Assembly: GCA_964416275.1 (NCBI GenBank)
Contig: CAYQDU010000003.1
Location: forward strand, 1 to 62,131
Length of the DNA: 62,131 nt
Direction of reading: 5' to 3'
Source of the DNA: an uncultured Anaerolinea sp.
Lineage (GTDB): Bacteria > Chloroflexota > Anaerolineae > Anaerolineales > UBA4823
The notes under the pieces are model-generated. The model was not told the origin of the DNA and did not search any database. It was given only the letters and a program-made list of their open reading frames with translations. The number at the start of each line of letters is the position of its first letter. Positions within the stretch are counted from its first letter, which is position 1. Both the position numbers and the translations under genes were made by a program. Positions 12,001 through 57,775 of this stretch are shown in pieces.

Positions 12001-15000
12001 GGCCTGAACCGTTGGTATCACCTGGAAGCGCGGGTGCAGGATTACGCCTTGCAGTTCTATATCGACGGGGCGCTGGTTTTGAGCTATACCGACGCCAATG
12101 CCGCCCATCTGGCCGCCGGGCAGAGCGGGTTGTTCACCCAGAACCAGACCACCGCTTACTTCGACGATGTGCTGGCCTCGCGCTATGGGCGCAGCGGCTG
12201 CCTGGTGGGGGCAGGCGATCTGGTCACCTATACCCTGACCATCTCCAACCAGCAGGTCATCACGGCCTACAACCCGCGCCTGGTGGACGTCATCCCGGCC
12301 GGGCTGAGCCTGCAATCCTATAGTTGGAAGAGCGACGACGCCGGAACCAGCCTGAGCGCCGGGCCGACCCCGGTTCCGGGCGCTGCTGGCAGCCTGACCT
12401 GGGACTTCAACCGCCTGGCGCCGCGCGTCCCGTTTGCGGCCAACCGTCACACCGCCATCACCATGACGGTAACGCTGGCGGTTTCCCCGGCTATCACCGT
12501 CAGCCAGCGCCTGGCGAACCAGGCCCACCTGACCTACGACGGCCAGGCCGGGGCGGGGCCGGTGGGCATCCAGCGCGCCTACGATGGCGGCACGCACTCT
12601 AACGGCGTGCGCACGATTGATCCCTACATTCTTAAGTCCAGTTCGCCGGCCAACGCCACGATTGGCGAGCCGGTCTACTTCACCATCACCGTGCCGTCGC
12701 ATCCCATTACGGCCACGCTGTATAACATCACCATCACCGATAATGTACCGGCCAACCTGCTGGTGCTGCCCGGTACGGTGCAGATCGTGGGTGGTACGGG
12801 AGTGGTCAACCAGACCCTGGGCAACAACCTGCGGGTGCTGTTTGGCAGCATCCCGGCTGGGACGGTGGCGTACATTCGCTACACGGCGGTGGTGCGCGAC
12901 GTCCTGGCAAACCAGGAAGGCGTGGTGGTTCCCAACACGGCCACGCTGGCCTGGGGGACGCAGACCACCACCACCCTGCCAGTCAACGTGACCCTGATCG
13001 AACCCAGCCTGGGGATCAGTAAGGTGGTTTCGCCGACCAACGCCGCCCCCGGCCAGATGGTGTTCTACACCGTCTCAGCCTATCACCTGGCGGGCGACAC
13101 CGAGACGGCCTACAACGTGACCATCAGCGATGTAGTTCCGGCCTCCCTGGCCTACCTTCCTGGCTCATGGCACATCGTCAACGGCCCGGCTGGGACGGCC
13201 AGCGACGCCGCCGACCCGACCCTGAGGGCCATCTTCCCGGTCGTTGGTCCGACCTGGACAGCGGCCAACCCGCTGCGCCTGGTGTATGCCGCCCAGGTTC
13301 GCGCCTGGGCCGCCCCCGGAGCGTTGATTACCAACACCGCCCGCCTGACTTACACCAGCACGCCCACCGACACCTACGGCGAGACCCGCGACGGCTCTGG
13401 CGGGGTGGACGATTACTTTGCCAGCCAGACGGCCGACCTGGCCCTGCCTGAAATCAGCGTGACCAAGACCGGGCCGATCACCGTCACTGCTGGCAACCTG
13501 ATTACTTACCTGGTGACGGTGCGCAACGAGGGCCCGTTCGCCGCCCCGGCCATCGTGACCGACACCCTGCCCTTCCAGGTTAGCTTTGTGAGCGCCACGC
13601 CCAGCCAGGGCAGCTGCGTCCATACGTACAATCCCACCGGCGGCCAGTTGGTCTGCAACCTCGGCTCGCTGGCCCCCGGCCAGGCTACCATCCAGGTGGT
13701 AGGGCGGGTGGACCCCAACACGCCGCTGGCCGCCGACCTGACCAACCGGGTGCGGGTGACCACCACCTCCCCAGACGGCGCGACCACCAACAACACCGCC
13801 GAAGTGGATACCGAAGTGTACACCTCGTCGGATGTGGGCCTGAATAAGTCTGGCCCAACTACCGCCATTGCCGGGCAGACCATTACCTATACCATCGCGG
13901 TCAGCAATACCGGCCCCTCCACCGCCCATACGGTAGACATCAAAGACTTGCTGCCGCCGGGCGTGTCTTACGTGGGCGCCAGCGCCAGCCAGGGCCTGTG
14001 CGTGGCCGGAATCTGCCAGTTAGGCGACCTGCCCACCGGGCAGACGGTTCACATTGTGGTGACGGCCACCGTGGGCGCTAACGTGAGCGGCACGCTGGTC
14101 AACACCGCCCAGGCTTTCTCGGTCAGCAGCGACCCGAACCCGGCCAATAACGTCGACACTCAGATCACGACGGTCAGCTCGCTGACCCGCCTGATGATTA
14201 GCAAGGTCGATCTGACCGACCCGGTGTACGCCGGCGACACCTACTTCTACGAGGTGGTCATCACCAACACCGGGCCGAGCGCGGCCCAAAACGTAGTTAT
14301 CTCTGACACGCTGCCGCCTTACGTGCATTACGAAGGCGCCAGCCCAGAGTGCTTCCACGATGGCAGCCCGGTGGGCGGACAAATCACCTGCAACCTGGGG
14401 ACGATGGCTCCCCTGGAAGTGCGCGACTACCTGATCAATGTGCGTGTGTTGAGCGATGTCATCAGCGGCACGGTGGGAATCAACCGGGTTTCGGCCACTA
14501 CCACTACCCCGCTGGCAGCCGGCAGCGTGCTGTCCGACCAGGAACCGACCACTTACCTGCAAAAGCTGGGCAACCCCATCGACTTGAGCTTGCTCAAGAG
14601 CGTGAACCCGGCCAGCGCGGTGGCAGGCAACGGTTTCTTTACCTATCACCTGACGGCCACCAATCACGGCCCGGCTCCGGCCAGCGACGTGATCCTGGTG
14701 GACGCTTACCCGCGTGAATTCAGCTTTATCTCGGCCGTCGCCAGCAATGGGGCGGTGTGTAATCAAGGCATGAGCTGCGCCCTGGGCGCGTTGGCGGTCA
14801 ACGAGACGGTATATATCACCCTGGTAGTGGCTGTGCCTTCGGACGTGCTGGCCGGGGTATATACCAACACCGCCCGCCTGACCAGCCCGGCCCCGGAAAC
14901 CGACCTGACCAATAACGACGCCCAGGCCGCCTCGACGGTAACGACCCTGGCAAACCTGGGCCTGGGCAAGCTGGCGCTTCCCAACCCGGCCACCCCCGGC

Positions 15001-18000
15001 GGCGACCTGACCTATGTCATCACCGTCACTAACACCGGCCCGTCGGATGCGGCCAACGTGACCGTGAGCGACGCCCTGCCGGTGGGCTTCATCCCCACGG
15101 CGATCTACTCCAGCCAGGGCAACTGCGCCGCTTTCCCCTGCAACCTGGGGACGCTCACACCGGGAGCTTCTGCCCTGGTGTGGGTGGTGGGTAAAGTCAG
15201 CCCCAACGCCGCGCCGGGACAGGTGGATAACACCGCCAACGCTGCCAGCAGCACGCCCGGCAGCGGCGCCAGCGACACGGTGATCGTGGGCCTGGCTGGC
15301 CTGGCCGATCTGGCCCTGGTCAAGACCGGTACGCCCACCAGCCTGCCGGGCGGCACGGTCTTCTATACCCTCACCCTGCGCAACCTGGGCCCATCCGACG
15401 CAACCGGGGTGGTCCTGACCGACACCCTGCCGGTCGGGCTGAGTTACGTGAGTATCACCCCGCCGGCTGGCTGCGGCTATCTGCTGGGGCGGATTGTGTG
15501 TACCGTTGGAACCCTGGCGGCTAACGCCCAACGCCAGTTTGTGGTGCAGGCGGTGGTGGACGGCAGCGTGCCGCCCGGCGCCAGCCTGGAAAACCAGGCC
15601 GCGGTGACGGCAACCTCGCCCGACCCCAACCCGTTGAATAACCTCGCCAACGCCGATACCTCCATCCTGGGGCAGGCGGATCTGGTGATTGCCAAGACGC
15701 AGCTCACGGCCAATCCGATCCTGGCCGGGACGCTGGTGACCTATACGATTGTGGTGACCAACACCGGGCCAGGGCTGGCGCGGCAGGTGGACGTGAAAGA
15801 CCAACTGCCGGCCGGGCTGAGCCTGGAACACATCGCGGCCTCGAGCGGTGGGGTGTGCGGTGGGACGGTGTGCCAGTTTGGAGCGCTGCTGCCGGGCGAG
15901 ACGCGCACAATCACGGTGACGGCGCGGGTGGACGAAGACGCCCCGGCCGGGACGGTAACCAACGTGGGTGCGGTGTACTCGGTGGACGAGAGTAACCCGG
16001 GCAACAACACCGCCACCACGACGACGACCCTCGTCACGAGCGCCGACCTGAGCGTGGCGAAGGTGGATTTGAGCGACCCGGTGGAACCGCTGGGTGGGTT
16101 GATCTACCAGTTGGTGGCCAGCAACGCCGGGCCGAGCGCCGCCCAGGGTGTGATCGTGACCGACACGCTGGACGCCAACGTGGTGTTCGTCAACGCCACA
16201 CCGGGCTGTGTCTATGCCGCCGGGCAGGTGGTATGCACGGTGGGAACGCTGGCGGGAGGGGCAAGCGCCTCGTTCCTGGTGGCGGTGACGGCCGGGGATG
16301 TGCCATCTGGGACGCTGCTGCACAATGCAGCGCTGGTGGCCGGGACGACGCCCGACGGCAACCCGACCAACAATCAAACGACGATCACCACGACAGTGCA
16401 AGCCCCCAATGGGCCGAGCGCCGAGGTGGGGATTGCCAAGACCGGCCTTCCGGCGAGCGTGGCGGCTGGCGACGTGGTGACCTACACGCTGACGGTGACC
16501 AACGCCGGGCCGCAGGCGGCCACTAACGTGCGGGTGCTGGAACTGATCCCGGCCGGGACGACGGCGCTGAGCCTGACGGCGGACAACCCGGATGCGGGCG
16601 ACGAACACTGCTCGCTGGGCGGGGCGTGCTACCTGGGGACGGTGTACTCGACCACTGTGGCGACGATCCAGGTGGTGCTGCGGGTGAACCCAGACTATGC
16701 CGGGAACCAGGTGGTGAACACGGCTTCGGTCTCGGCCGACCAGTTCGACCCGCTGCCGGGGAACAACATCGCTTCGGCCGCCACCGATGTGACGCAGGCC
16801 GCCGACCTGCTGCTGGCAAAGAGCGACCTGATGGACCCGGTGCTGGCGGGCGACCTGATCCTGTACCAGGTGTGGGTGACCAACACCGGGCCGTCGCTGG
16901 CCCAGGCGGTGGTGGTGACCGACGCCATCCCGGTTGGGACGGTCTTTGCCGGGGCTTCGCCGGTGTGCGCCGAGAGCAGCGGGATCGTGACCTGCGCCCT
17001 GGGCGACCTGCCGGCCGGCGCGGCGACCTCGGTGTGGGTGCAGGTGCGGGCGGATCAAAGCCTGCCCGACCCGACCGTGGTGACCAACACCGCCCGGGTC
17101 CACAGCAGCACGCCGGATAGCGACCCGAACAACAACGTCGACAGTGAGCCGACGACGGTACATCAATCGACCCTCAACCCGACCGACCTGGCGATTGTCA
17201 AGGGCGATGCGCCCGATCCGGTGATTGCCGGGAACCTGCTGACCTATACCTTAGTGGTAACCAACTACGGCCCGGCCCCCGCCAGCGGGGTGCAGGTGGC
17301 CGACGCGCTGCCGTCTGGAACCAGCCTGGTGAGCGCAATCGCTTCGCAGGGCGTGGGCTGCTATGGCAGCGTGGTGTGCCTGTTGGGCGACCTGGCGGTG
17401 AACGCTACGGCTCACATCACAATTGTGGTGCGCGTCGATCCCAACCAGCAGGTGGCGCTGAACAACCTGGCCCAGGTGTCCAGCACCAGCGTGGATAATA
17501 ATCCCAATAACAACCAGGCTTTTGCCGCCACCCAGGTGGAAACCTCGGCCGACCTGCAGCTAACCAAGACCGGCCCGGTTGCGGCTCAACCGGGCGGCAA
17601 TATCGCCTACCAGATCATCGTCCAAAACCTGGGGCCAAGCGACGCCCAGGCGGTGGTGGTGAGCGATACCCTGCCGCTGGAACTGCAATCGGCGGTCGCC
17701 AGCGCCTCGCAAGGCGCGTGCGCCATTGCGGCCGGCGTGGTGACCTGCAACCTGGGTTCGCTGCCCGCTGGCGGCCAGGCGGTGATCGACATCGCTGGCT
17801 TGCTCGACCCGCACGCCACGGCGGCCTTCGCCAACGCGGCCGAAGTGGAGAGCGCCACCCCCGACCCGAACACGGGCAATAACTGGGACGACGCCCTGAC
17901 CACCCCCACCCCGGGGGCCGATCTGGAACTGCAAAAGACCGCCACCCCCACCGCCCCGGCCGGCGGCGCGATCCTGTACAACCTGCGGGTCTACAATCAC

Positions 18001-21000
18001 GGCATTTCGCAGGCCCAGAACATCGTGGTGACCGACACGCTGCCGGCCGGCATGACCTACGCCAGCGCCAGCCCGGCCTGCGCGTTTACGGCGGGGCAGG
18101 TGATCTGCACCCTGGCCGCGCTGGATGTGAACGCCTCCGTCACCTTTACCATCCTGGTGACGGCCGCCTCCGACATCATCCCCGGCACTAGCCTGGAGAA
18201 CCGGGCCGTGGTTGGCTCCAGCACGCCGGACAGCAACCCAGAGAACAACCATGATAACGCCGATACCAGCATCATCGCCCTGGCAGACCTGGGGATCGAC
18301 AAGCGTACCGTAGCCGACCCGGTGGTGGCGGGCGACCTCGTCACCTACACCATCGTGGTGACCAACTACGGGCCGTCGTTGGCCCAGGCCGTGCAGGTGT
18401 GGGACTTCCTGCCCGCCGGGGTGACCCTGGCAAGCGTCACGCCCAGCCAGGGCATCTGCTCGCTGACGGTGTGTCTGCTGGGCGATCTGGACGTGGGCGC
18501 AACCGCTACCCTGACCCTGACCGGGCGCATCAACCCCAACCTGGCTGCTGGAACGATCCTGCGCAACCGGGCCCAGACCACCAGCGCCACGCCCGACCCC
18601 GGCCCGTATTCCAATACCGACACGGTGACTAACACCACCACCCGCCTGGCCGACCTGAGTCTCGTCAAGACCCACACCGGCCTGATGACCCCCGGCCTGC
18701 CGTTCACCTATCGACTGACCGTCTCGAACCTGGGGCCGTCGCTGGCCTCGGCGGTGGTCGTCACCGACAGTTTGCCGCTGAGCGTAACCTTCGTCTCCAG
18801 CACGGCTTCCTGCCTGCGCACGGCCAGCAACCCCGACATGGTAGCGTGCAGCCTGGGCAACCTGGCCGCCGGCGCCTCTGCCAGCTTCGACCTGCTGGTG
18901 CTGCCCGATGCTCGCCTGACCGCCGGCACGCTGACCAACCTGGCCCAAACCGCCAGCGTCACGCCCGACCCGGAGCCCACCAACAACCAGACCGGCGATC
19001 TGACCACCGTGCAACCGGCGGCCGACCTGCGCCTGTCGAAGAGCGATAACCCCGATCCGGTGGTGGCGGGCCAACTGCTGACCTACACCCTGATCGCCGC
19101 CAACCTGGGGCCGTCGTTGGCCCAGGCGGTGATCGTCACCGACACCCTGCCGCTCTCGCTGACCTACCTGAGCAGCAGCCTGCCGTGTAGCCTGATCGGG
19201 AGCCACCCGCAGGTGATTGCCTGTGCGTTGGGCGATCTGCTGCCAGGGGCCACCCAAACCTTCCAGGTGGTGACGCGGGTTGATCCAGGCGTGCCGCCGG
19301 GCGCCAGCCTGCATAACTACGCCCTGGTGGGCAGCCTCACGCCAGACACCAACCCCACCAATAACGTCGGCAGCGCCGTGACCACCGTCATCGCCCAAAG
19401 CGACCTGGCGGTGGACAAGACCTGTCCGCCCGACCCGCTGATCGCTGGCGGCATCGTCACCTACACGGTGGTGATCTCGAACAGCGGCCCCTCCACCGCC
19501 CAGGATGTGGATGTCAAGGACTTCCTGCCCATTGGGTTGATCCCGTTGGGCGCGCACACCACTGACGGGCAGCCCTGCCTGCCGAACCTGTGCCAGTTGG
19601 GCGATCTGCAGCCGGGCGAAGTGGTCACAATGGTGGTCACCGCCCAGGTAGACCCCAGTCAGCCCATCGAATCGCATCTGGATAACCAGGCCACGGGCTT
19701 TACCGACACCAACGACCCCAACCCTGGCAATAACAGCGATTCGTGCAGCAATATGATCCTGTCGGAAGCTCGCCTGGTGATCGAAAAGCACGACCTGGTG
19801 GACCCGGTGGGCCAGGGCGGCCTGTTGATCTACGCCCTGAACGTGACCAATACCGGTCCCTCCAGCGCCCAAGATGTGACCGTGATCGATACCCTGCCCG
19901 CCCAGGTGACCTACCTGAGCAGCACCGATCACTGTGTGGAAGGCCCGGCCGGCAGCCTGACCTGCTCGCTGGGGACTATCCTGCCCAACACCACCCAGAG
20001 CTTCTTGGTGACGGTGCAGGTGCCGGTGGACGTATACAGCGGCACCATCCTGCACAACCTGGCCGAAGTCAGCAGTAGCACGCCGCTGACAGACACCTCG
20101 ATCCTGACCGATAGCGAAGATACCCTGGTGATCGAACCGCCCGTGCCGCCGGCCGACCTGTCGATCGTCAAGACCGAGAACCCGGCCGTGGCGGTAGCCG
20201 GACGGGATGACGTGACCTATCATCTGCAGGTGGTCAATCACGGCCCCGGCCGGGCCACTGACGTGGAAGTGCTCGACCCGCTGCCCGCCGGACTGACCTT
20301 CGTCAGCGCCCAGCCAAGCCAGGGCTTCTGCTGGAACGCCATCCAATGCTCGCTGGGTGTGTTGGAAGTCAACGCCTCGGCCATGATTACCGTGACGGCC
20401 CACGTCAACGCCGATGTGCTGACCGGGACGCTGATTGCCAATACGGCCATCGTACGCGGCTCGCAGCCCGACCCTGACCCAACCAACAATACCAGCACCA
20501 CCACGCTCCAGATCATTACGGCGGCCGATCTAACCATCGTCAAGCTCGATCAGCCCGACCCGGCCACGCCCGGCGAGCTGATGACTTACACCCTGGCGAT
20601 CACCAATCACGGGCCGTCGGACGCCCAGAACGTGTTGGTGACCGATCCCTTGCCGCCGCAGGTCAGCTTTGTGGGCGCCCTCCCGGCCAACAGCGCCGGG
20701 CCAAACCCACTGACCTGGAACCTGGGGGCGCTGGCCGCCGGACAGACCGTCCACATCTTGCTGTGGGCGCGGGTCGATCCGAGCGTAACAGCCCCGTTCA
20801 CCAACACGGCCCTGGTCGGCTCCAGCACGCCGGAGATCAACCCGACCGATAACAGCTCTTCGACTACCACCCAGGTCGAGCCGCAGGCCGATCTGTCGCT
20901 GGCGAAGGATGGACAGCCGCACCTGGCCCTGAATGGCAGCGTTGTGACCTACACCCTGACGGTGCATAACCTGGGGCCGTCCGACGTGCAGAACGCGGTA

Positions 21001-21936
21001 GTCACCGACTGGCTGCCGGGCGAGGTGATCTTCGTCTCGGCCCAGCCCGTCCAGGTCGGCGGGCCGAACCCGCTCACCTGGAACCTGGGGACTCTGCCGG
21101 TCAACGCCACCCGCCAGATCACGGTAGTGGTGCGAGTGACCGACTGGGCCACCCAGAACTTCACCAACCTTGCCCAGGTCGATAGCAGCACGCCCGACCC
21201 TGACCCGAACAACAATCAGGATGACGAGCTGACCTACATGAACGGCGTGGCCGACCTGTCGATTGTCAAGGAGGCCCTGCCCAACCCGGTGCTGCCCGAG
21301 TCGGAGATGTACTACCTGCTGACGGTGCATAACGCCGGGCCATCGCCGGCCCAGGATGTGGTGGTGAGCGATACGCTGCCGGCCGAGGTGCGCCTGATTT
21401 CGGCCTCGCCCACCGCCGCCAGCGGCCCGCGCCCGTTCGTCTGGAACCTGGGGACGCTGCAGGTGGGCGAAACCCGCCAGATCACCCTGACGGTCTTCGT
21501 CGAGGGCTGGGCCAACGGAGCCTTTACCAACACGGCCGTAGTCGGCTCGTCTACGCCCGACCCTGACCCGGAGGATAATACCTCCACCTCGACCGTGGTG
21601 GTTGGCACGCCCACCGGGCTGACCCTGGCCGGTGTGAGCGCCGTCCCGGCCGGGCCGGGCCAGGTGCGGCTGGAATGGACGACCCTCGCCGAGGGCAACG
21701 CCCAGGGCTTCCAGGTTTACCGCTCGGCCAGCCGCGACTTCGCCTCGGCCGAACTGGTGCAGGTCGTCTCGCTGCAAGGGGCCGGGGCGCACTACCAGGC
21801 CCTGGATGTCCCGCCGGCCGCCGGGGTGTGGTACTACTGGCTGGCAACGGTGGACGCCTCCGGGCGCATAACCCAACCGGCTGTTTTGATGGTTTCGGTC
21901 TACTGGCAGTACCTGCCGGTATTGAGAAAGGAGTAG
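6085..21936 (+). CDS. Giant (5283 aa) secreted DUF11/'conserved repeat domain' surface protein with an inserted lectin-like domain, a C-terminal Fn3/Ig-like domain and a terminal YLPVLRK motif
   Basis: Long Sec-type signal (basic N-region, LFNLVVAWTMLLSQVFPLSVALA). 22 clear tandem ~120-aa repeats (DLxxxK...G..vTYtl.vtN.GPs.A..V.v.D.LP...C...C.lG.L...N.A) between ~13440 and 21600, plus about eight divergent repeats upstream. Consistent GC3-rich codon usage; GGAGG ribosome-binding site at the start. Confidence 0.9.
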   Translation: MDSKYSIRFVLGRLQKAARRTSGRALRLFNLVVAWTMLLSQVFPLSVALAAGLDAPVGPAARPNDPFASLQGAAGEWEASPAPTLSARSLPGWWQPAAAPVEGLNQNLAPAWLKPESPAAQAPAAAALGGGLTPGWLNAAETAAVETANSSLGSTLTPGWLGAAPGGPQASGARGPLKAPGVCPAAANLALNLILPDYTISRGNAAGDVYTLTVRNTSAISVPEVSLLIDPNAGFYYLAGSATASSSVSGTLTLSAPPANTAPDAAFTLTPLGAPIPPQKTLQPGEIITLTFRLATDANAASGQQLFASLQSGSPASTFCKSTVRNVPTARGNLVVEKSPTVQNGSYGEIKTWNVTLKNTGLGMVYGGQFADVAGPGYIGLNVAPAITPVDLAPSQMALYTVTAQINACTNLTNTVSAWWSIGNSDGTATLANPLEDGVDILYLLSEPGVKVEMGGLPAQTYCGALSADIPITVTSLGPGPARNLSLIAQTGGVSISTSDPHWSQAGDTFTYLGGSPVGSLLAHQVVTFTLHVTSPRLCNSQTLAVDFTPHFQDACQLLDYSGVTGSASVLTANDAPSLELIKSGPSGTVLAGDIFTYEVHISGNNREMIVAPGVVVTDVVPANLVIQNVSTTGGPFVQAGQAITWTLPATATPGPYSETLYIKVRVPNQGELSCAAPLGITNIAYARAQGCAQCAPMVVSDTLTNRLNDYQPGLGASITRVTPPVELCAPPTTFSNLIDITNGITWANTIFSDTLGLGLLSQPLHVVAGSVKVLVNGADRTADVATTLGPPLRIDLSAIGTYSNTAQIAITYQVTASLGTIPFNSSEQTIYYPAEFRLGGSPRSGCPGGDLAYAGTEVRLVQGVLDFTVTPGDVLACHVNNVLLTVSGMNNNTLTNHMQVTFQADPNDIFTPTHYTLGGSFAGLTPTVLKVGNVVTFTFPTGQDYDGVGTIVFPLFRPCGVETTLQAGVVYQDRCQVTRTGVGTGGSTTLVSKVDLFVTPNKYTVNTRDTVWRFYVGNFSSVTAEDVIVTNTLPLGHKLQTYDLSSTSAPTNTVSMITGTLPSGQEVVTFTLSSLPPYGRIRFDVYGKIDSICNLPTRINIALLDQCGMVGEGSGVCQGRKDAFVDLLPGPAFLVTSNDQTAHLPLCETGYVRLTVKNSSASADEFNFKITDVLTNVTVTGPVTATVVDENGQIIVGETSGLPLQGVAFSPNIVTTGNQQNLTWEQSMFAPGTPGYDILQRRQASDVITIFMRVRTGCTGTDARVQSFVDARDVCARPLASAENAKTLLTDAPALNAVKRGYNVTRGYPLTNPVYAYPGDTLRWEVDVTNVGDQHVLNLWVTDTLPANFTYANANLGGAYAAGQVVWNLTGTPVLNIGETKTFVVTGTVTNLVCSDTQNRVLAVFGCTAGDRCSGLPANTDFTLQTRPNAFSLTSSGDLSTCGGLVTVNINNDGAPAANVTLTDTLPTGYVYEAFVSATAAPNVLPAAGAAKPVFGWTGANLLPRGLTTLVFRVRNAAASGACAAPGLPLTNQTDLNMQDGCGNNYGAANTTSSGFNLTTPNLSVTKTPVTQFRNVGDVANWTLTVRNTGAAPAPNVVITDRVGSNFGSLSASAGSFGGTSAVIVGNTIHWTPAITLPVGGQWTATVNGTLLSVGDNTNQVTATAACASGCQYAAVNTTAYVTLISQFDKGPNSIMTGTIGDVKVFTFTVGLPDVDGVYQNLSLVDTLPAGLGYVGSRVVYQQDMDNPTPPAPVIVTTPSSAPAYLSSGVIQWNLGTLNGVAVATGVITTVIRDIPTNYGSPQAGYVRLTNNLNLSYTEDGQPYTYNDTASADVYEPLLHLSKNYRTAQGCASALLIDNFNDGNTLGWTVSGGALALNGYTLQMPTGANRRALAGSTTWGDASFSAFALSTGVTHATDNDLGLILRANSVNTYYRLYWRRNLAGTTGAYRLDRVVGGTATNLVNTAAPAAYGLNRWYHLEARVQDYALQFYIDGALVLSYTDANAAHLAAGQSGLFTQNQTTAYFDDVLASRYGRSGCLVGAGDLVTYTLTISNQQVITAYNPRLVDVIPAGLSLQSYSWKSDDAGTSLSAGPTPVPGAAGSLTWDFNRLAPRVPFAANRHTAITMTVTLAVSPAITVSQRLANQAHLTYDGQAGAGPVGIQRAYDGGTHSNGVRTIDPYILKSSSPANATIGEPVYFTITVPSHPITATLYNITITDNVPANLLVLPGTVQIVGGTGVVNQTLGNNLRVLFGSIPAGTVAYIRYTAVVRDVLANQEGVVVPNTATLAWGTQTTTTLPVNVTLIEPSLGISKVVSPTNAAPGQMVFYTVSAYHLAGDTETAYNVTISDVVPASLAYLPGSWHIVNGPAGTASDAADPTLRAIFPVVGPTWTAANPLRLVYAAQVRAWAAPGALITNTARLTYTSTPTDTYGETRDGSGGVDDYFASQTADLALPEISVTKTGPITVTAGNLITYLVTVRNEGPFAAPAIVTDTLPFQVSFVSATPSQGSCVHTYNPTGGQLVCNLGSLAPGQATIQVVGRVDPNTPLAADLTNRVRVTTTSPDGATTNNTAEVDTEVYTSSDVGLNKSGPTTAIAGQTITYTIAVSNTGPSTAHTVDIKDLLPPGVSYVGASASQGLCVAGICQLGDLPTGQTVHIVVTATVGANVSGTLVNTAQAFSVSSDPNPANNVDTQITTVSSLTRLMISKVDLTDPVYAGDTYFYEVVITNTGPSAAQNVVISDTLPPYVHYEGASPECFHDGSPVGGQITCNLGTMAPLEVRDYLINVRVLSDVISGTVGINRVSATTTTPLAAGSVLSDQEPTTYLQKLGNPIDLSLLKSVNPASAVAGNGFFTYHLTATNHGPAPASDVILVDAYPREFSFISAVASNGAVCNQGMSCALGALAVNETVYITLVVAVPSDVLAGVYTNTARLTSPAPETDLTNNDAQAASTVTTLANLGLGKLALPNPATPGGDLTYVITVTNTGPSDAANVTVSDALPVGFIPTAIYSSQGNCAAFPCNLGTLTPGASALVWVVGKVSPNAAPGQVDNTANAASSTPGSGASDTVIVGLAGLADLALVKTGTPTSLPGGTVFYTLTLRNLGPSDATGVVLTDTLPVGLSYVSITPPAGCGYLLGRIVCTVGTLAANAQRQFVVQAVVDGSVPPGASLENQAAVTATSPDPNPLNNLANADTSILGQADLVIAKTQLTANPILAGTLVTYTIVVTNTGPGLARQVDVKDQLPAGLSLEHIAASSGGVCGGTVCQFGALLPGETRTITVTARVDEDAPAGTVTNVGAVYSVDESNPGNNTATTTTTLVTSADLSVAKVDLSDPVEPLGGLIYQLVASNAGPSAAQGVIVTDTLDANVVFVNATPGCVYAAGQVVCTVGTLAGGASASFLVAVTAGDVPSGTLLHNAALVAGTTPDGNPTNNQTTITTTVQAPNGPSAEVGIAKTGLPASVAAGDVVTYTLTVTNAGPQAATNVRVLELIPAGTTALSLTADNPDAGDEHCSLGGACYLGTVYSTTVATIQVVLRVNPDYAGNQVVNTASVSADQFDPLPGNNIASAATDVTQAADLLLAKSDLMDPVLAGDLILYQVWVTNTGPSLAQAVVVTDAIPVGTVFAGASPVCAESSGIVTCALGDLPAGAATSVWVQVRADQSLPDPTVVTNTARVHSSTPDSDPNNNVDSEPTTVHQSTLNPTDLAIVKGDAPDPVIAGNLLTYTLVVTNYGPAPASGVQVADALPSGTSLVSAIASQGVGCYGSVVCLLGDLAVNATAHITIVVRVDPNQQVALNNLAQVSSTSVDNNPNNNQAFAATQVETSADLQLTKTGPVAAQPGGNIAYQIIVQNLGPSDAQAVVVSDTLPLELQSAVASASQGACAIAAGVVTCNLGSLPAGGQAVIDIAGLLDPHATAAFANAAEVESATPDPNTGNNWDDALTTPTPGADLELQKTATPTAPAGGAILYNLRVYNHGISQAQNIVVTDTLPAGMTYASASPACAFTAGQVICTLAALDVNASVTFTILVTAASDIIPGTSLENRAVVGSSTPDSNPENNHDNADTSIIALADLGIDKRTVADPVVAGDLVTYTIVVTNYGPSLAQAVQVWDFLPAGVTLASVTPSQGICSLTVCLLGDLDVGATATLTLTGRINPNLAAGTILRNRAQTTSATPDPGPYSNTDTVTNTTTRLADLSLVKTHTGLMTPGLPFTYRLTVSNLGPSLASAVVVTDSLPLSVTFVSSTASCLRTASNPDMVACSLGNLAAGASASFDLLVLPDARLTAGTLTNLAQTASVTPDPEPTNNQTGDLTTVQPAADLRLSKSDNPDPVVAGQLLTYTLIAANLGPSLAQAVIVTDTLPLSLTYLSSSLPCSLIGSHPQVIACALGDLLPGATQTFQVVTRVDPGVPPGASLHNYALVGSLTPDTNPTNNVGSAVTTVIAQSDLAVDKTCPPDPLIAGGIVTYTVVISNSGPSTAQDVDVKDFLPIGLIPLGAHTTDGQPCLPNLCQLGDLQPGEVVTMVVTAQVDPSQPIESHLDNQATGFTDTNDPNPGNNSDSCSNMILSEARLVIEKHDLVDPVGQGGLLIYALNVTNTGPSSAQDVTVIDTLPAQVTYLSSTDHCVEGPAGSLTCSLGTILPNTTQSFLVTVQVPVDVYSGTILHNLAEVSSSTPLTDTSILTDSEDTLVIEPPVPPADLSIVKTENPAVAVAGRDDVTYHLQVVNHGPGRATDVEVLDPLPAGLTFVSAQPSQGFCWNAIQCSLGVLEVNASAMITVTAHVNADVLTGTLIANTAIVRGSQPDPDPTNNTSTTTLQIITAADLTIVKLDQPDPATPGELMTYTLAITNHGPSDAQNVLVTDPLPPQVSFVGALPANSAGPNPLTWNLGALAAGQTVHILLWARVDPSVTAPFTNTALVGSSTPEINPTDNSSSTTTQVEPQADLSLAKDGQPHLALNGSVVTYTLTVHNLGPSDVQNAVVTDWLPGEVIFVSAQPVQVGGPNPLTWNLGTLPVNATRQITVVVRVTDWATQNFTNLAQVDSSTPDPDPNNNQDDELTYMNGVADLSIVKEALPNPVLPESEMYYLLTVHNAGPSPAQDVVVSDTLPAEVRLISASPTAASGPRPFVWNLGTLQVGETRQITLTVFVEGWANGAFTNTAVVGSSTPDPDPEDNTSTSTVVVGTPTGLTLAGVSAVPAGPGQVRLEWTTLAEGNAQGFQVYRSASRDFASAELVQVVSLQGAGAHYQALDVPPAAGVWYYWLATVDASGRITQPAVLMVSVYWQYLPVLRKE

Positions 21937-39288: not shown

Positions 39289-45090
<5,802 letters not shown>

Positions 45091-52128: not shown

Positions 52129-52286
52129 GGGCCCCCCCGCCATCGGCGGAATAGCCGCAGCTATAGAAAGATTCCCGCCGGCAGAAGACCTATCAAGGAG
52201 AAGATGAGACGATTCTATAAATATTTTGCCGGGCGGTTAATCCTGGTAAAATAATGATGTATTTCAAGTCAACTAAGGAGGTTTAC

Positions 52287-52778
52287 GTGATTAGCAATTC
52301 CCTGATGGAAGCCATCAACGAACAAATCAACGCCGAGTTGTACTCGGCCTACCTGTACCTGGCGATGTCGGCCCACTTCGAGGCGGCCAACCTGCCCGGT
52401 TTCGCCAAGTGGACCCGCATGCAGGCCCAGGAAGAAACCGAGCATGCCATGAAGTTCTTTGACTTCATCAACGATCGCGGCGGGCGGGTTCACCTGCACG
52501 TCATCCAGGCGCCGCCGACCAGCTTTGGCACGACCCTGGAAGTCTACGAGCAGATCCTGGAACATGAAATGAAAGTCACCGGCCTGATCAACGCCCTGTA
52601 CGAGAAGGCCCTGGCCGAAAAGGACTACGCTGCCCAGGTGCTGCTGCACTGGTACATCGCGGAGCAGGTCGAAGAAGAAAAGAATGCCAGCGCAATTGTC
52701 GAACAACTGCGCATGGCGGGCGACCGGCCAGGCAACCTCATGTATTTGGATCGCCACGTAGGCAAGCGCGAAGACTGA
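52287..52778 (+). CDS. ftn: Non-heme ferritin
   Basis: AINEQINAELYSAYLYLAMS, QAQEETEHAMKF, EHEMKVT, WYIAEQVEEE ferroxidase residues. AAGGAGG ribosome-binding site before the GTG at 52287. Confidence 0.94.
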   Translation: MISNSLMEAINEQINAELYSAYLYLAMSAHFEAANLPGFAKWTRMQAQEETEHAMKFFDFINDRGGRVHLHVIQAPPTSFGTTLEVYEQILEHEMKVTGLINALYEKALAEKDYAAQVLLHWYIAEQVEEEKNASAIVEQLRMAGDRPGNLMYLDRHVGKRED

Positions 52779-52803
52779 TCTTGATGACCAGCCGCGGCAG
52801 GCT

Positions 52804-52915
52804 GGCCTGAAAAAGTATCGACCAGGGGATTTTTGTCGCGCAGAGTGCGACGAGATCCCCTGGCCCTCTCTTTTCTGGGGCGCTTCTCAAGCGCCCCTGC
52901 CTCCCCACAATGGAG
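52804..52915 (-). repeat. R2 element (copy D, divergent, reverse orientation)
   Basis: Reverse complement CTCCATT-GTGGGGAGGCAGGGGCGC..GCGCCCCAGAAAAGAG...GGGGATCTCGTCGC-ACTCTGC-GCGACAAAAATCCCC...TTTTTCAGGC keeps the same modules as copies A-C. Confidence 0.65.
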
Positions 52916-52966
52916 CGGAACGATAGTGCGTAGGGTTGCCGTTTTGGATGAACAGGGGAGATGCCC

Positions 52967-53857
52967 ATGGATCTACAGCAGGCGATCGATGCTTTTGCCC
53001 TGGCGACCGTCAACCTGACCGAGGCCGACCTGGAACGCCCCTGGGACTGGGAAGAGTACGACGAAGGAGTGCGCTTCGCTTTCTTCCGCACCTATGAAGA
53101 ACTGCGCGATTTATCGTCGCGCCTGTTTGCTCAGCGCTTGCAGATGGGCCGCCCGCGCACTCTGGCCCAACACTGCCTGGCGCAGTACCACGCCGCTTAT
53201 CAAGACCTGCGGGCAGTGACCCAGGGCGTGGACGACGCGTTGGCGTCTCGCGCCCCTGCCGAGGGCGAATGGTCGCTGCGCGAAACCCTGGTGCATATGC
53301 TGCGCGCCGAGCGTTCTTTCTTCGCCATCTGCCATTACGCCGTCGAGCGCGAGCGGGCCATCGGGCGGGGCGAGCCGGAACGCCCCCCTGCCTTGACCGA
53401 CGAAGACTGGGATGCGTTTTGGGCTGCGTCTAACGATCCTTTCAGTGGTTTGCGCGACCAGGCCCCCTTTTCGATCCTGATGGATTATTTCGCCGGGCTG
53501 CACCAACGCGTCCTCTCTTACTTTGCCGACCTGAGCGAGGCCGAATTGGAAACGCCTTCGATTTATTGGGAAAGCACTCCCATGCCGCTGATCTTCCGCC
53601 TGCACCGTTTCGATTCGCACCTGCGCCAGCATACAATCCAGATGGAGAAGTGCCTGCAAACCCTGGTCGGGCCGCCCGGCGAGGCCCGCCGCTTGCTGCG
53701 CCTGATCTATACCGCCCTGGCCGAATTGCAAGGGACACAGATCGTGGCCGCGGCTTCCGGCATCGCCGGATACGGCGACGCAGCCTGTGAGCGCCTGGCG
53801 GCCGAGATCGAGCGCCGCACAGCCGAGGTCCTGGCCGCACTAGAAGATAAAGCTTGA
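52967..53857 (+). CDS. DinB/YfiT-like putative metalloenzyme
   Basis: PAEGEWSLRETLVHML and FRLHRFDSHLRQHTIQ carry the DinB His ligands. Confidence 0.75.
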   Translation: MDLQQAIDAFALATVNLTEADLERPWDWEEYDEGVRFAFFRTYEELRDLSSRLFAQRLQMGRPRTLAQHCLAQYHAAYQDLRAVTQGVDDALASRAPAEGEWSLRETLVHMLRAERSFFAICHYAVERERAIGRGEPERPPALTDEDWDAFWAASNDPFSGLRDQAPFSILMDYFAGLHQRVLSYFADLSEAELETPSIYWESTPMPLIFRLHRFDSHLRQHTIQMEKCLQTLVGPPGEARRLLRLIYTALAELQGTQIVAAASGIAGYGDAACERLAAEIERRTAEVLAALEDKA

Positions 53858-53867
53858 AAGCCTGTTT

Positions 53868-54812
53868 ATGACTCTGGATACCCCTCCCCAGTCCCCTGCC
53901 TATTGCTCCGATCTATCGCTGGCGGCCGGCGAGCCGTTGATCGGCAGCGCCACCCAGACCGCTGGCTATATCTTGATCGAATATCCAGACGCCTGGGGAG
54001 AGAAGGCCCTGGACGAGTCGACCATCCCGCCGGCGGTCAAAAATCACCTCAAGGCGTTTGGCCGGGCCTATCCGTTGGTCAAGACCCTGCTGGTGCGCCC
54101 GGCTTCGCTGGCCCAGGCTGGCGAGCGGCGCTGTTTTTTGGTCGTGACGCACGAGCGTCAACCGGCTATCTACGCCTTCCCTCTACCAACCTATGAAAGC
54201 CTGCTCGACCTGGACCTGGCCGATATTTTGAGCGGCGACGTCGATGGCGTGGACCCTTACCATGCTTATCGCCGCAGCCAGCCGCTCTTCCTGGTCTGCA
54301 CCAATGGCCGGCGCGATATCTGCTGCGCTCGCCACGGCGCGCCGGTAGTGAGCGCCCTGCTCTCGTTGGCCCAGGACAGCCCCGAACCGCTGGTCTGGCA
54401 TTCGACCCACCTGGGAGGGCATCGTTTTGCGGCCAATCTGTTGTGTCTGCCGCATGGCCTGCTGTATGGCCGGGTGCGAGCAGAATTGGCCGGGCCTATT
54501 TTCGAAGCCTACCGCGCCGGGCAGATTTTTCTGCCTAACCTGCGCGGGCGCACGGCTTACCCCCCGCCGGTGCAGGCTGGCGAGCATTTTCTGCGCCTGG
54601 AGACGGGTCTGTCCTCGCTGGAAGCCCTCTACCTGCACGAAGCCCATGCGGTGGAACCCGATCATTGGACGGCGCAGTTCTTCTCTGAAGTGAGCGGCGA
54701 GACCTACCGGCTGGATATTCGCCTTATTTCTTCAGGCGAAGAGCGGGTTTTCGAAAGCTGTCGCCTGGATAAGACTACGCCCGTGCTGCGCTATCAGGTG
54801 TCGTTGATATGA
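53868..54812 (+). CDS. Sucrase/ferredoxin-like (thioredoxin-like [2Fe-2S], Apd1/Aim32-type 2Cys-2His) protein
   Basis: LVCTNGRRDICC (C-x8-C), STHLGGHRFAANL (HxGGH), YGRV. Confidence 0.88.
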   Translation: MTLDTPPQSPAYCSDLSLAAGEPLIGSATQTAGYILIEYPDAWGEKALDESTIPPAVKNHLKAFGRAYPLVKTLLVRPASLAQAGERRCFLVVTHERQPAIYAFPLPTYESLLDLDLADILSGDVDGVDPYHAYRRSQPLFLVCTNGRRDICCARHGAPVVSALLSLAQDSPEPLVWHSTHLGGHRFAANLLCLPHGLLYGRVRAELAGPIFEAYRAGQIFLPNLRGRTAYPPPVQAGEHFLRLETGLSSLEALYLHEAHAVEPDHWTAQFFSEVSGETYRLDIRLISSGEERVFESCRLDKTTPVLRYQVSLI

Positions 54813-55282
54813 AACTGGCCACCCTGTGCTACGTTCGTAAAGATCATCAAACCCTGATGGTGCATCGGAATAAGAAAGCTAACGACATGCACCTGGGGAA
54901 ATGGAACGGCCTGGGCGGCAAACTGGAGCCTGGCGAGACCCCCGAAGAGTGCGTCATCCGCGAGCTGTACGAAGAAACGGGTTTGAGCGTCCGCAGCCCG
55001 CAGCTCAAGGGCGTGCTGACCTTCCCCGGCTTTGCTAACGACGAAGACTGGTACGCCTTTGTGTTTATCGTGACCGATTTCAGCGGCGAATTGATCGATT
55101 CGCCCGAAGGCGCCCTGGCCTGGGTAGAGGATGCTCGCCTGTTAGACCTCAACCTGTGGGAAGGCGACCGCATCTTCATCCCCTGGCTTGACCAGCCCGG
55201 CTTCTTTTCCGGCAAGTTCACCTATCGGGATGGGCGGTTGGTCGATCACACTGGGGTCTTCTATGCTTCTGAGGCGGTTTAG
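54809..55282 (+). CDS. Nudix hydrolase, 8-oxo-dGTP diphosphatase (MTH1/MutT-like)
   Basis: WNGLGGKLEPGETPEECVIRELYEETGL Nudix box; SPEGALAW; LWEGDR. ATGA overlap with the upstream gene. Confidence 0.9.
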   Translation: MKLATLCYVRKDHQTLMVHRNKKANDMHLGKWNGLGGKLEPGETPEECVIRELYEETGLSVRSPQLKGVLTFPGFANDEDWYAFVFIVTDFSGELIDSPEGALAWVEDARLLDLNLWEGDRIFIPWLDQPGFFSGKFTYRDGRLVDHTGVFYASEAV

Positions 55283-55630
55283 GTGCTGGCCCTGGCCCGC
55301 TCTCGCCTGGGAGGGCGCCTGGCAGCCTGGGCGTTTGCCCGGATGAGCTTTGCCATCCCCGTTCATCGTCTGTACGATACGCCCACCCTGCTGGCCTTTG
55401 AACACCCCCGGCCCAGCTACCGGGTGCATATCTTGCTGACGCCGAAGCGAGCCATTTCCAGCCTGGAGGCTTTAGGTCCCCAGGACGCCGACTTCCTGGC
55501 CGATCTGTTTGCTGTGGTGCAGAGCCTGGTTGCCGAGCGCGGCTTATCCGCATCGGGCTATCGCCTGATTGCCAACGGCGGCGCTTACCAGGACTTTCCT
55601 CTCTTGCATTTCCACCTGATCGCCGATTAA
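55283..55630 (+). CDS. HIT-family protein (first triad His replaced)
   Basis: AFEHPRPSYRVHILLTPK; YRLIANGGAYQDFPLLHFHL. GTG start abuts the Nudix stop. Confidence 0.75.
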   Translation: MLALARSRLGGRLAAWAFARMSFAIPVHRLYDTPTLLAFEHPRPSYRVHILLTPKRAISSLEALGPQDADFLADLFAVVQSLVAERGLSASGYRLIANGGAYQDFPLLHFHLIAD

Positions 55631-55887: not shown

Positions 55888-56781
55888 TCAGCGAGGAAAC
55901 TGACGCGGGTTGTTATTGTTGTTGCGGGCGTAACTGGTGCGGTTGGGCGTCATCGGCCCGGTGTTACCCGGGCGGCTGCCGCCGGGGTGACTGCTGCTCG
56001 CTACATCCACATAAGTGGCCTCTTCGGGTTCGGGCGGGTCGATGTGGATCGTCTCGGCGCGCGGCGATTCGAACTTGACCTGCTGGCCGGGGCGATTGTT
56101 CCCGGCGGTGTGCATCGAGCGGTAGCCGCCGTTCTTGGGCTGGGTGGCGGCGATGGGCATTGGCGCCTGGCTGCGCTGCCCGGCGGCGGTCGATGGGATC
56201 GTCGGGCGGGGCTGCGGAGCGGCCTGGACGCGCTGTGTAGAAGCGGCGCGTGCCGGAACGACGGCCTGGGGCGCATCCTGGCCGAACAGCCGGTCGCCCG
56301 AAACCGAGAACGTGCCGATAATCAGCACCCGGATGAGCCAGACCAGCACGGCCACAAAGACGGGGACAACGTGCAGCAGCGTCTCGCGGCCCACCACTTC
56401 GTTGCCCAGGGTCTGGTGGCCCATCACCGCCAGGGCCACGCCCCACCAGGTGAGCATGGCGTTCATGGTGGCGGCCAGCAGCCAGGCCCCAAACAGGTAC
56501 CAGTTTTCATTGTGCGCCACCGGCGTGCCAGGCTCATGCTCGCCGGGTGAGAACAGGCGGGCGATGCCGGCAAAGTCGATGCCGCAGAAGGCGATTGCCA
56601 GGATGGTGGACCAGCGCAGGCCCATGAATTTGAGATCACCCAACAGGTCCGACAGGGCGTAATCGGTGGTGCTGTAGTTGAAAATCTCAAATGCCAGCAA
56701 TGCTGTCACGATGATAACGCCGAAGACAAGCCCGCGGCGAATACGAAGATCACGCACAAATTGCGATTGGTTGGTAGTCAT
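55888..56781 (-). CDS. Uncharacterised membrane protein (about 4 TM helices and a long Pro/Gln/Arg-rich disordered C-tail)
   Basis: GAGGAGG ribosome-binding site before the ATG at 56781; hydrophobic segments GLVFGVIIVTALLAF, WSTILAIAFCGIDFAGIA, WYLFGAWLLAATMNAMLTWWGVALA and VVPVFVAVLVWLIRVLIIGTF. Confidence 0.75.
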   Translation of the reverse strand: MTTNQSQFVRDLRIRRGLVFGVIIVTALLAFEIFNYSTTDYALSDLLGDLKFMGLRWSTILAIAFCGIDFAGIARLFSPGEHEPGTPVAHNENWYLFGAWLLAATMNAMLTWWGVALAVMGHQTLGNEVVGRETLLHVVPVFVAVLVWLIRVLIIGTFSVSGDRLFGQDAPQAVVPARAASTQRVQAAPQPRPTIPSTAAGQRSQAPMPIAATQPKNGGYRSMHTAGNNRPGQQVKFESPRAETIHIDPPEPEEATYVDVASSSHPGGSRPGNTGPMTPNRTSYARNNNNNPRQFPR

Positions 56782-56857
56782 ACGTTTAGCCTCCTCAAGA
56801 CCGATCCGAACTTGCTTCCGCACTGTGTCTGAGAGGCAGGTACCTGAGGCAAGTCTG

Positions 56858-56886
56858 TTGACAATGCATTGAACTGTCGTTATAAT
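56858..56886 (+). promoter_or_regulatory. Consensus sigma70 promoter TTGACA-N17-TATAAT for the lytic transglycosylase gene
   Basis: TTGACA at 56858-56863, 17-nt spacer, TATAAT at 56881-56886. Confidence 0.85.
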
Positions 56887-56887
56887 A

Positions 56888-56916
56888 ATCATAGAACATA
56901 AATTCTATTATGTCAA
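56888..56916 (-). promoter_or_regulatory. Near-consensus sigma70 promoter TTGACA-N17-TATGAT for the membrane-protein gene
   Basis: Minus-strand TTGACA at 56916-56911, 17-nt spacer, TATGAT at 56893-56888. Confidence 0.8.
56893..56906. promoter_or_regulatory. LexA (SOS)-like box 1, AGAAC-ATAA-ATTCT
   Basis: One mismatch to the AGAAC-N4-GTTCT box of Gram-positive/Chloroflexota LexA; it overlaps both promoters. Confidence 0.6.
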
Positions 56917-56925
56917 GAGCCAATT

Positions 56926-56939
56926 AGAACGTTTATTCT
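56926..56939. promoter_or_regulatory. LexA (SOS)-like box 2, AGAAC-GTTT-ATTCT
   Basis: Same AGAAC-N4-ATTCT variant, 33 nt (about 3 helical turns) from box 1. Confidence 0.6.
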
Positions 56940-56965
56940 GTTTTTGTGCGACTTGTGAACCCGAT

Positions 56966-57775
56966 ATGACCAGAAGACTCCGCTGCCCAGACGAATATTT
57001 CTCTGCGCCAGACTCGGCCCCCGAACCAGACGTTTATGAAGACGTCGACTTGGACGATGACGCTTTCCTGGAGGACGAAAACATCTACCTGCCGGCGGCT
57101 TACGACCAGCCAGCCGAAGTCGGGCCAGGGATAACGCTCTCGCTGTCCAATGGGCCGGGGCCGGGGTTGATTGCGACGGTAACGGTGGTGGTGTGTATGC
57201 TGATGGGGTTGGGCCTGTTTGCGCTTTCCGGCGGGGCCAGGGCGGCCATGTTGGCCGCCAGCGAGGCCTCGGCGGCAATCGCTACCCAGGCGGCGCAGCC
57301 GGCTGCGCCGCCCGCGGCCCAGGCTGCCGCGCCCGCCGTCCCGGTTGTATCGGCCGATTGCTCGGTGAGCGACCTGTTTCCTGGCCAGGTACGCCGGTGG
57401 TGTGGGTTGATTACCCCATATGCCCACAAGCACGGCCTGGCGCCCGACCTGGTGGCGGCCCTGATCTGGCTGGAAAGTGGGGGGGATGAAGTGGCCTACT
57501 CAAAGAGCGGCGCGGTGGGGCTGATGCAGGTCATGCCCAGCGATGGGCTGTCGGCGTCTTTCATGTGCATCAATGGGCCCTGTTTTAGCGACCGGCCGAC
57601 CACGGCGCAACTGCAAGACCCAGAGTTCAACATCGCCTACGGCACGCGCATGCTGGCCGGCCTGCTGCGCAAGAACGGCGACCTGCGCGAAGCGCTCAAA
57701 TCCTATGGCCCCATGAACGCCGGGTATAGCTATGCCGATAAAGTCCTGGGCATCTTCCAACGCTATGGCAAATAG
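56966..57775 (+). CDS. Membrane-anchored lytic transglycosylase (SLT domain)
   Basis: Acidic N-terminus, TM helix (LIATVTVVVCMLMGLGLFAL), Ala/Pro linker, then LVAALIWLESGG (catalytic Glu), SGAVGLMQVMP, DPEFNIAYGTRML and ALKSYG. Confidence 0.88.
   Translation: MTRRLRCPDEYFSAPDSAPEPDVYEDVDLDDDAFLEDENIYLPAAYDQPAEVGPGITLSLSNGPGPGLIATVTVVVCMLMGLGLFALSGGARAAMLAASEASAAIATQAAQPAAPPAAQAAAPAVPVVSADCSVSDLFPGQVRRWCGLITPYAHKHGLAPDLVAALIWLESGGDEVAYSKSGAVGLMQVMPSDGLSASFMCINGPCFSDRPTTAQLQDPEFNIAYGTRMLAGLLRKNGDLREALKSYGPMNAGYSYADKVLGIFQRYGK

Follow-up and report, generated by a model that had tools for sequence, protein, structure and literature searches.

Face-to-face promoters and candidate LexA-type operators between a conserved membrane-protein gene and a lytic transglycosylase gene of Anaerolineales

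The sequence analysed here, called the window below, is the 62,131-nucleotide contig CAYQDU010000003.1 from an uncultured Anaerolinea sp. (Chloroflexota; Anaerolineales). It is an entire metagenome contig, and identical shorter contigs occur in two sequencing runs. Our subject is the region at positions 56858-56940, which lies between two divergently transcribed genes, one encoding a membrane protein (leftward) and the other a membrane-anchored lytic transglycosylase with an SLT domain (rightward), and which carries two opposed promoters and two sequences that resemble binding sites of LexA, the repressor of the SOS response (table 1). The G+C content of the window is 56-73%, and this stretch is conspicuous in it as AT-rich and dense in signals.

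The initial annotation described a TTGACA-N17-TATAAT promoter on the plus strand and a TTGACA-N17-TATGAT promoter on the minus strand, and both were confirmed by direct reading and by a promoter scan. The order of the segments is TTGACA(56858-63)-ATGCATTGAACTGTCGT-TATAAT(56881-86)-A-ATCATA(56888-93)GAACATAAATTCTATTA-TGTCAA(56911-16), with a single base pair between the two -10 hexamers. Apart from this facing pair, no site on either strand of the whole 62-kb window has 11 or more of the 12 consensus matches. With starts taken to lie 7 nt downstream of each -10, we infer start sites at about 56893 (plus) and 56881 (minus), which agrees with the separation of about 12 nt given in the initial annotation; the 5' ends would overlap, and the membrane-protein gene would have a leader of about 100 nt. 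At the level of sequence the layout is one of face-to-face promoters with overlapping transcript 5' ends.

The two matches to AGAAC-N4-ATTCT that were originally reported are also as described: box 1 at 56893-56906 (AGAACATAAATTCT) and box 2 at 56926-56939 (AGAACGTTTATTCT) are the sole exact matches in the 62 kb. With one mismatch allowed there are four matches in the window against 0.96 expected, and its palindromic core, AGAA-N6-TTCT, occurs three times against 0.25 expected, a number reached in none of 100 shuffled sequences. When the window was scored with a position weight matrix built from the orthologous sites described below, the two boxes ranked first and second (22.8 and 22.4 bits), and the maxima over 20 shuffles had a mean of 4.8 and a largest value of 16.4 bits; each box has seven of the eight core positions of the clade consensus and its A/T flanks. 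Relative to the inferred starts, box 1 runs from -12 to -25 in the minus promoter, where it occupies the spacer and touches the -10, and from +1 to +14 in the plus promoter; at the level of sequence, one operator is common to the two promoters. Box 2 has its centre 33 bp from that of box 1 and spans +34 to +47 of the transglycosylase gene leader and -45 to -58 of the minus promoter. A possible third site, 23 bp from box 1, lies over the -10 of the plus promoter; its score is within the range of the shuffles, its conservation is inseparable from that of the -10, and its assignment is weak. An OmpR-type direct-repeat site (a two-component system is encoded nearby) and Fur- or PerR-like boxes in the AT-rich stretch were also considered, and both were dropped, as the footprint at orthologous loci is a strict GAAC-N4-GTTC palindrome.

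Table 1. Features of the divergent region and its flanking genes (window coordinates; a point marks features without a strand)
Feature	Coordinates	Strand	Description
Membrane-protein gene, 297 amino acids (predicted regulated gene 1)	55888..56781	-	Four predicted helices; GAGGAGG Shine-Dalgarno sequence at 56790-56796
Promoter toward the SLT gene	56858..56886	+	-35 TTGACA 56858-56863, 17-nt spacer, -10 TATAAT 56881-56886; 12/12 consensus
Conserved 10-bp palindrome, CAATGCATTG	56862..56871	.	In the -35/spacer of the plus promoter, which is the early leader of the membrane-protein gene
Possible weak third site, TTGAACTGTCGTTATA	56869..56884	.	GAAC-N4-GTTA; 5.8 bits, third in window, within shuffle range
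Promoter toward the membrane-protein gene	56888..56916	-	-35 TTGACA 56916-56911, 17-nt spacer, -10 TATGAT 56893-56888; 11/12 consensus
LexA-type box 1, TAGAACATAAATTCTA	56892..56907	.	Core GAAC-N4-ATTC, 7/8 positions; 22.8 bits, best in window
LexA-type box 2, TAGAACGTTTATTCTG	56925..56940	.	Core GAAC-N4-ATTC, 7/8 positions; 22.4 bits, second in window
Lytic transglycosylase (SLT) gene, 269 amino acids (predicted regulated gene 2)	56966..57775	+	Pfam SLT, E = 1.5e-17, residues 150-252

Orthologues of the membrane-protein gene were collected with their surroundings from species-representative genomes whose labels are, with few exceptions, Anaerolineales, Anaerolineae or Chloroflexota (80 loci, L003-L082, of which 79 were usable). 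Conservation of the boxes upstream of orthologues, which the initial annotation had named as a check, is borne out: within 300 bp upstream of the gene a perfect GAAC-N4-GTTC is present at 69 of the 79 loci and a match with at most one mismatch at all 79, against backgrounds of 0.001 and 0.10 per 300 bp, respectively. Perfect GAAC-N4-GTTC sites number 83 in the 687 kb made up of the 80 loci, two further loci (L001 and L002) and the window, and 81 of them directly precede the membrane-protein gene. The consensus of the orthologous sites is the 16-bp palindrome TAGAACAWWTGTTCTA, and upstream regions anchored on this box show a fixed design, ctcTTGACAaaa-TAGAACnnnnGTTC-TAtatt (spelled out, cTTGACAaaa-TAGAACnnnnGTTC-TAtatt, i.e., TTGACA followed by 3 nt and TAGAAC-N4-GTTC), in which the box fills the 17-nt spacer and extends into the -10. 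The box lies mostly in the -35/-10 spacer across the orthologue loci, and box 1 of the window shares both this conservation and the overlap with core promoter elements. The minus promoter of the window, TTGACAtaaTAGAATTTATGTTCTATGAT, follows the orthologue design; box 1 is identical in L330, a relative with 83% identity, and a GAAT variant at the box 1 position is found in L014, L025 and L330. Two loci from metagenome-assembled genomes of Anaerolinea thermophila (L004 and L026) are arranged as in the window. Some loci have a second box 20-27 bp downstream; in others a divergent promoter is arranged back to back and has a box of its own (TAGAACnnnnGTGCTA). The membrane-protein gene is present twice, on different contigs, in several metagenome-assembled genomes (L011/L021, L004/L026, L006/L074, L058/L073 and L027/L067); a perfect box precedes both copies in four of these five, and the box of L073 has one mismatch (AGAACATAATTTCT).

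GAAC-N4-GTTC was reportedly described, in J Bacteriol in 2002, as the LexA motif of Dehalococcoides ethenogenes, a member of the Chloroflexota. We approached the connection with LexA in this phylum from two sides. Metagenome contigs were scanned for TTGACA-N0-30-TAGAAC-N4-GTTCTA, which gave 120 loci (L203-L322), and the gene directly downstream of each was classified. The membrane-protein family stands directly downstream at 17 of these loci and a LexA-family gene at 16; in this sample the motif is thus found at the membrane-protein gene as often as at lexA. The binomial probability of finding 16 LexA-family genes in 120 is about 4e-33, if two such genes per 3,500 are assumed. Six of the 16 proteins are full-length (LexA_DNA_bind plus Peptidase_S24) and the others are mostly S24 paralogues of about 195 amino acids. 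The third commonest class is FtsK/SpoIIIE-like ATPases of 245-387 amino acids (12 of 120; L203, L218, L248, L273, L297, L298, L317 and others), and there are also Y-family or ImuB-like polymerases (4 of 120), a uracil-DNA glycosylase (1 of 120) and, according to Pfam, small GerE/LuxR regulators and the SLT partner. At L218, a recA gene lies on the same strand about 0.9 kb further downstream of the FtsK/SpoIIIE-like gene. Four near-identical IS91-like transposase genes (L233, L245, L270 and L310) are likewise preceded by TTGACA and TAGAAC-N4-GTTCTA; either these are SOS-controlled transposases or the end of the element mimics the box. When viral contigs were scanned for TAGAACAWWTGTTCTA, most of those recovered were low-GC phage contigs, and no LexA or membrane-protein homologue was present on any of them.

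The second side started from a LexA protein. The full-length protein encoded at L318 passes the NCBIfam LexA equivalog model TIGR00498 (189.9 bits; cut-off 110.95). It shares 41% identity with a Bacillus subtilis LexA sequence, the catalytic Ser and Lys being aligned, and its close homologues are named 'transcriptional repressor LexA [Chloroflexota bacterium]'. Seven lexA loci encoding homologues of this protein were chosen by protein identity alone and not by the motif. Each of the seven carries a single perfect box, (T/C/G)AGAAC-N4-GTTCT(A/G), which lies 30-100 bp upstream of lexA and follows a TTGACA-N17-TAGAAT-type promoter at a distance of 4 nt. A box so placed at lexA's own promoter is the classical signature of LexA autoregulation, which these genes would be predicted to share. 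The lexA neighbourhood is conserved in Chloroflexota (L323, L324, L325 and L328), with rpsT upstream and a convergent gene for the DNA polymerase III delta subunit that overlaps or abuts the lexA 3' end.

By these comparisons the motif upstream of the membrane-protein gene is the same as that upstream of Chloroflexota lexA and of some repair genes, and it is also the established LexA motif of Firmicutes and Actinobacteria (PMC3323433). With that class (the Cheo/DinR box of B. subtilis, and Mycobacterium) it shares the palindromic core, the 4-nt spacer, the position over core promoter elements, and the presence upstream of lexA and of some translesion polymerases (PMC3323433). It differs in its flanks, which are T-A here (TAGAAC...GTTCTA) and C-G there (CGAAC...GTTCG); moreover, each site of the window has one GAAT half-site, and the window targets are not known SOS genes. 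The predicted operator belongs to the known GAAC-N4-GTTC LexA class, and the new part is the target genes, which have not previously been tied to the SOS response. In our judgement the best explanation of 56858-56940, and one we regard as quite probable, is that it is an SOS-controlled regulatory region of an Anaerolineales chromosome in which LexA would sit on box 1 over both promoters.

Several observations weigh against this interpretation. There is no perfect GAAC-N4-GTTC in the window, each of its boxes having a C-to-T change that makes one half-site GAAT. Neither lexA nor recA was found in the window or at the 80 orthologue loci by tblastn with B. subtilis and Escherichia coli LexA and E. 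coli RecA as queries. The phylum is the only label that the seven lexA loci have ('Chloroflexota', not Anaerolineales), and recA genes on three metagenome contigs have no box directly upstream. The description 'LexA-like boxes' in the initial annotation is supported, strongly by the orthologue footprint and also by the seven lexA promoters, with the qualification that each box reads GAAC-N4-ATTC rather than the perfect GAAC-N4-GTTC. Owing to the GAAT half-site both boxes are probably weaker than the consensus; LexA would nevertheless be expected to bind them, perhaps less tightly, and the two sites might compensate. The same GAAT half-site variant occurs in the recA operator of B. subtilis.

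Another adverse observation concerns box 2. The initial annotation had one operator pair acting on both divergent genes, and of this the part played by box 1 holds up, in that it overlaps both promoters and is conserved. Conservation does not extend to the pair. The nearest relative, L330, has CCGAATAAATGTCTTG at the site of box 2, which departs from the core at two or more positions, and an equivalent of box 2 is missing from the aligned loci L004, L007, L019 and L006. Because box 2 is degraded in the first and absent from the others while box 1 is unchanged, these alignments indicate that the switch is conserved as one operator and that the pair belongs to this lineage only. One could go further and suppose that only box 1 works and that box 2 is a recent or decaying near-match without a regulatory role, for which the same alignments speak. 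The chance of a second exact AGAAC-N4-ATTCT within 33 bp is very low, however, and many orthologue loci have a second box at other, differing spacings (-20 to -80), which suggests repeated selection for a second site; we find a switch in which box 2 does nothing possible and rather doubtful.

The boxes might also be real operators for a regulator other than LexA, either an unrelated dimeric repressor with a similar half-site or, mainly, the 195-amino-acid S24 paralogue. The latter is a LexA-like protein with a Peptidase_S24 domain and without a match to LexA_DNA_bind, and it has a box in its own promoter spacer (L221, L278, L302, L215, L220, L314 and others); it may be a second damage-cleavable repressor in these bacteria. 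At L278, L221 and L302 this box stands 1-3 nt after the -35, as it does at the membrane-protein gene, which also counts against LexA itself as the binder and would fit autoregulation by the paralogue. On the other side, canonical lexA genes have the identical motif at their own promoters in seven of seven cases selected without regard to it, the motif equals the known Gram-positive LexA motif (PMC3323433), and the different DNA-binding domain of the paralogue leads one to expect another recognition sequence. We therefore think a non-LexA regulator improbable, and even with the paralogue as the binder its S24 domain would predict the same RecA-dependent induction.

The promoter pair is closely associated with the transglycosylase gene. 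A divergent SLT orthologue is present at 36 of the 80 loci, the window counted, and an opposing promoter in the same face-to-face position was found at 23 of 36 loci with a divergent SLT gene and at 2 of 43 without one (Fisher p = 1e-8). The two -10 hexamers at the orthologue loci either share 3 bp (TATATTATA) or, like those of the window, are separated by 1 bp. In another 19 loci the membrane-protein gene is closely followed, on the same strand, by a more distant SLT-domain gene. Since the two are linked in two different gene orders, this argues for a joint function and joint expression of the predicted membrane and SLT proteins. It has to be set against the idea that the plus promoter serves mainly for interference with, or antisense transcription against, the membrane-gene promoter, so that the two genes would be expressed alternately and not together. 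The overlap of the promoters is so complete that polymerase binding must be mutually exclusive, and no Shine-Dalgarno sequence can be recognised ahead of the ATG of the SLT gene (window 56940-56966), whereas the membrane-protein gene has a perfect GAGGAGG; both points favour that idea. Yet the opposing promoter is almost confined to loci with a divergent SLT gene, the co-directional arrangement at 19 loci argues for co-expression, and the same operator covers both promoters, so that we give alternate expression little credence. That the whole arrangement arose by chance in an AT-rich intergenic region of a GC-rich genome, where TATAAT-like and AGAA/TTCT strings come readily, can be dismissed as already refuted by the near-universal conservation across 79 loci, by the lack of any other promoter of at least 11/12 or any other box in the 62 kb, and by the shuffle controls.

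We envisage that LexA control of the two genes would operate as follows. Two near-consensus sigma-70-type promoters face each other and, because their -10 hexamers are 1 bp apart, RNA polymerase could occupy only one at a time; the 5' ends of the resulting transcripts would overlap by about 12 nt. The minus promoter would drive the conserved four-helix membrane protein and the plus promoter the membrane-anchored SLT lytic transglycosylase. A LexA dimer on box 1 would cover the spacer and -10 edge of the minus promoter together with +1 to +14 of the plus promoter and, because it covers both, one operator could silence both genes. Box 2, about three helical turns away, would probably serve in cooperative binding or as a roadblock in the SLT leader, and would do so in this lineage only. 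Once DNA is damaged and RecA stimulates LexA to cleave itself, both strong promoters would become free and, as they could not be occupied together, would compete for polymerase. LexA occupancy, damage induction and promoter competition are what we infer from the placement of the sites.

A comparable layout is known in the E. coli biotin operon, where bioA and bioBFCD are transcribed divergently from partly overlapping face-to-face promoters and are co-repressed by one dimeric BirA protein bound to bioO. The shared operator between facing promoters is the point of likeness; the differences are the signal (biotinyl-AMP there, presumably DNA damage here), the repressor, the near-perfect consensus of both promoters of the window, and the second box in one of its leaders. 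Divergent pairs under SOS control are also familiar (B. subtilis lexA-yneA, Mycobacterium tuberculosis lexA-chiZ (Rv2719c) and E. coli uvrA-ssb), and resemble the arrangement predicted for the window in having one or more intergenic LexA sites that control two divergent genes. One member of each Gram-positive pair encodes a division-blocking membrane protein that has a cell-wall domain; YneA, ChiZ and DivS are DNA-damage-induced membrane proteins or cell-wall hydrolases of this kind (PMC3989709, PMC13396833). Those proteins are small and single-pass, often have a LysM domain and are encoded beside lexA, whereas the membrane protein of the window has four helices and 297 amino acids and lacks LysM, so it does not share their defining features. 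Unlike the YneA/ChiZ-type pairs, the 80 orthologue loci have no lexA within 4 kb, and the cell-wall domain is here an SLT transglycosylase on a separate protein.

The membrane protein itself is extremely conserved over its N-terminal 166 residues, with dozens of invariant positions, and its tail is disordered, Pro/Gln-rich and ends in a PEPTYH-like motif. Its homologues number more than 7,900 and, where named, are hypothetical proteins of Chloroflexota or Anaerolineales. Pfam gave nothing above cut-off for it (DUF7536 scored 19.6 bits against a cut-off of 27), NCBIfam and PHROG gave no match, a profile search of the PDB returned only two weak matches to ATP synthase subunit b (E 0.05 and 0.3), and its AlphaFold2 model is of low confidence (pLDDT 55, pTM 0.32). 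The SLT protein has an acidic N-terminus, one hydrophobic anchor and an SLT domain with ES and GLMQ motifs; its matches in NCBIfam and PHROG are at the domain level only, and its acidic N-terminal 60 residues are variable among orthologues.

By analogy with YneA, ChiZ and DivS, the most likely function of the two products would be the remodelling of the envelope or septum, or a block of division, during the SOS response. A lysis function like that of holin and endolysin is the second possibility for the pair. The holin-endolysin cassettes of SOS-induced prophages, tailocins and bacteriocin lysis genes likewise combine a small multi-pass membrane protein and a membrane-anchored murein transglycosylase, under the SOS control that is predicted here, and at the domain level the SLT part has matches among the phage endolysin and lytic-tail families of PHROG. 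The differences are that the membrane protein has no PHROG match and so belongs to no holin family found there, and that the pair lacks a phage context: it is conserved on the chromosome across an order, has more than 7,900 homologues of its membrane protein, and its neighbours in the window (a two-component system, HIT, NUDIX and DinB_2) are of the housekeeping rather than the phage type.

Beyond the 3' end of the membrane-protein gene, window positions 52254-55630 hold a plus-strand run of small stress-type genes (ferritin/Dps, DinB_2, sucrase/ferredoxin-like, NUDIX and HIT), in which the matrix scan of the window found no LexA-type box. Further away are a 5,283-amino-acid open reading frame with many DUF11 repeats, which suggests a giant surface protein (6085-21936, plus strand), and a gene for a 1,933-amino-acid non-ribosomal peptide synthetase with the domain order A-T-C-A-T-TE (39289-45090, minus strand). 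The leader of the membrane-protein gene contains two palindromes in addition to the boxes. The first, CAATGCATTG, or its permuted form CATTGCAATG, is present exactly in 14 loci, 14-22 nt beyond the LexA box (the window, L003-L005, L007, L009, L020, L024, L036-L039, L044 and L062), some of which have no opposing promoter; the background is 13 matches with at most one mismatch in 276 kb, and the palindrome could be the site of a second regulator. The other, CAGGTACCTG, at 56837-56846 just upstream of the -35 of the plus promoter, is kept in the nearest relatives L330, L331 and L019. Rfam returned no RNA family in 56600-57100 at E values up to 1, and given this result a riboswitch or leader-RNA explanation is without support.

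Our search of the literature found no experimental SOS data for the Anaerolineales, a large, mostly uncultured and filamentous group, and the comparisons made here give a sequence-level view of its SOS regulon. The non-repair target that stands out most clearly in that view is the highly conserved membrane protein, which has no family assignment and is coupled genetically to a lytic transglycosylase. Tentatively, and as a suggestion that may well prove wrong, the pair would be the envelope effector of the Chloroflexota SOS response: a new module, conserved throughout the order, that halts septation, remodels peptidoglycan or lyses damaged cells within the filament, with mutually exclusive promoters and one LexA site setting the timing and the ratio of its products. 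The conserved face-to-face promoters under one operator, a layout kept across many species, offer a compact natural case for promoter competition. As the comparable SOS targets of Firmicutes and Actinobacteria (YneA, ChiZ and DivS) form a division checkpoint, this pair could hold a checkpoint or lysis function of the Chloroflexota.

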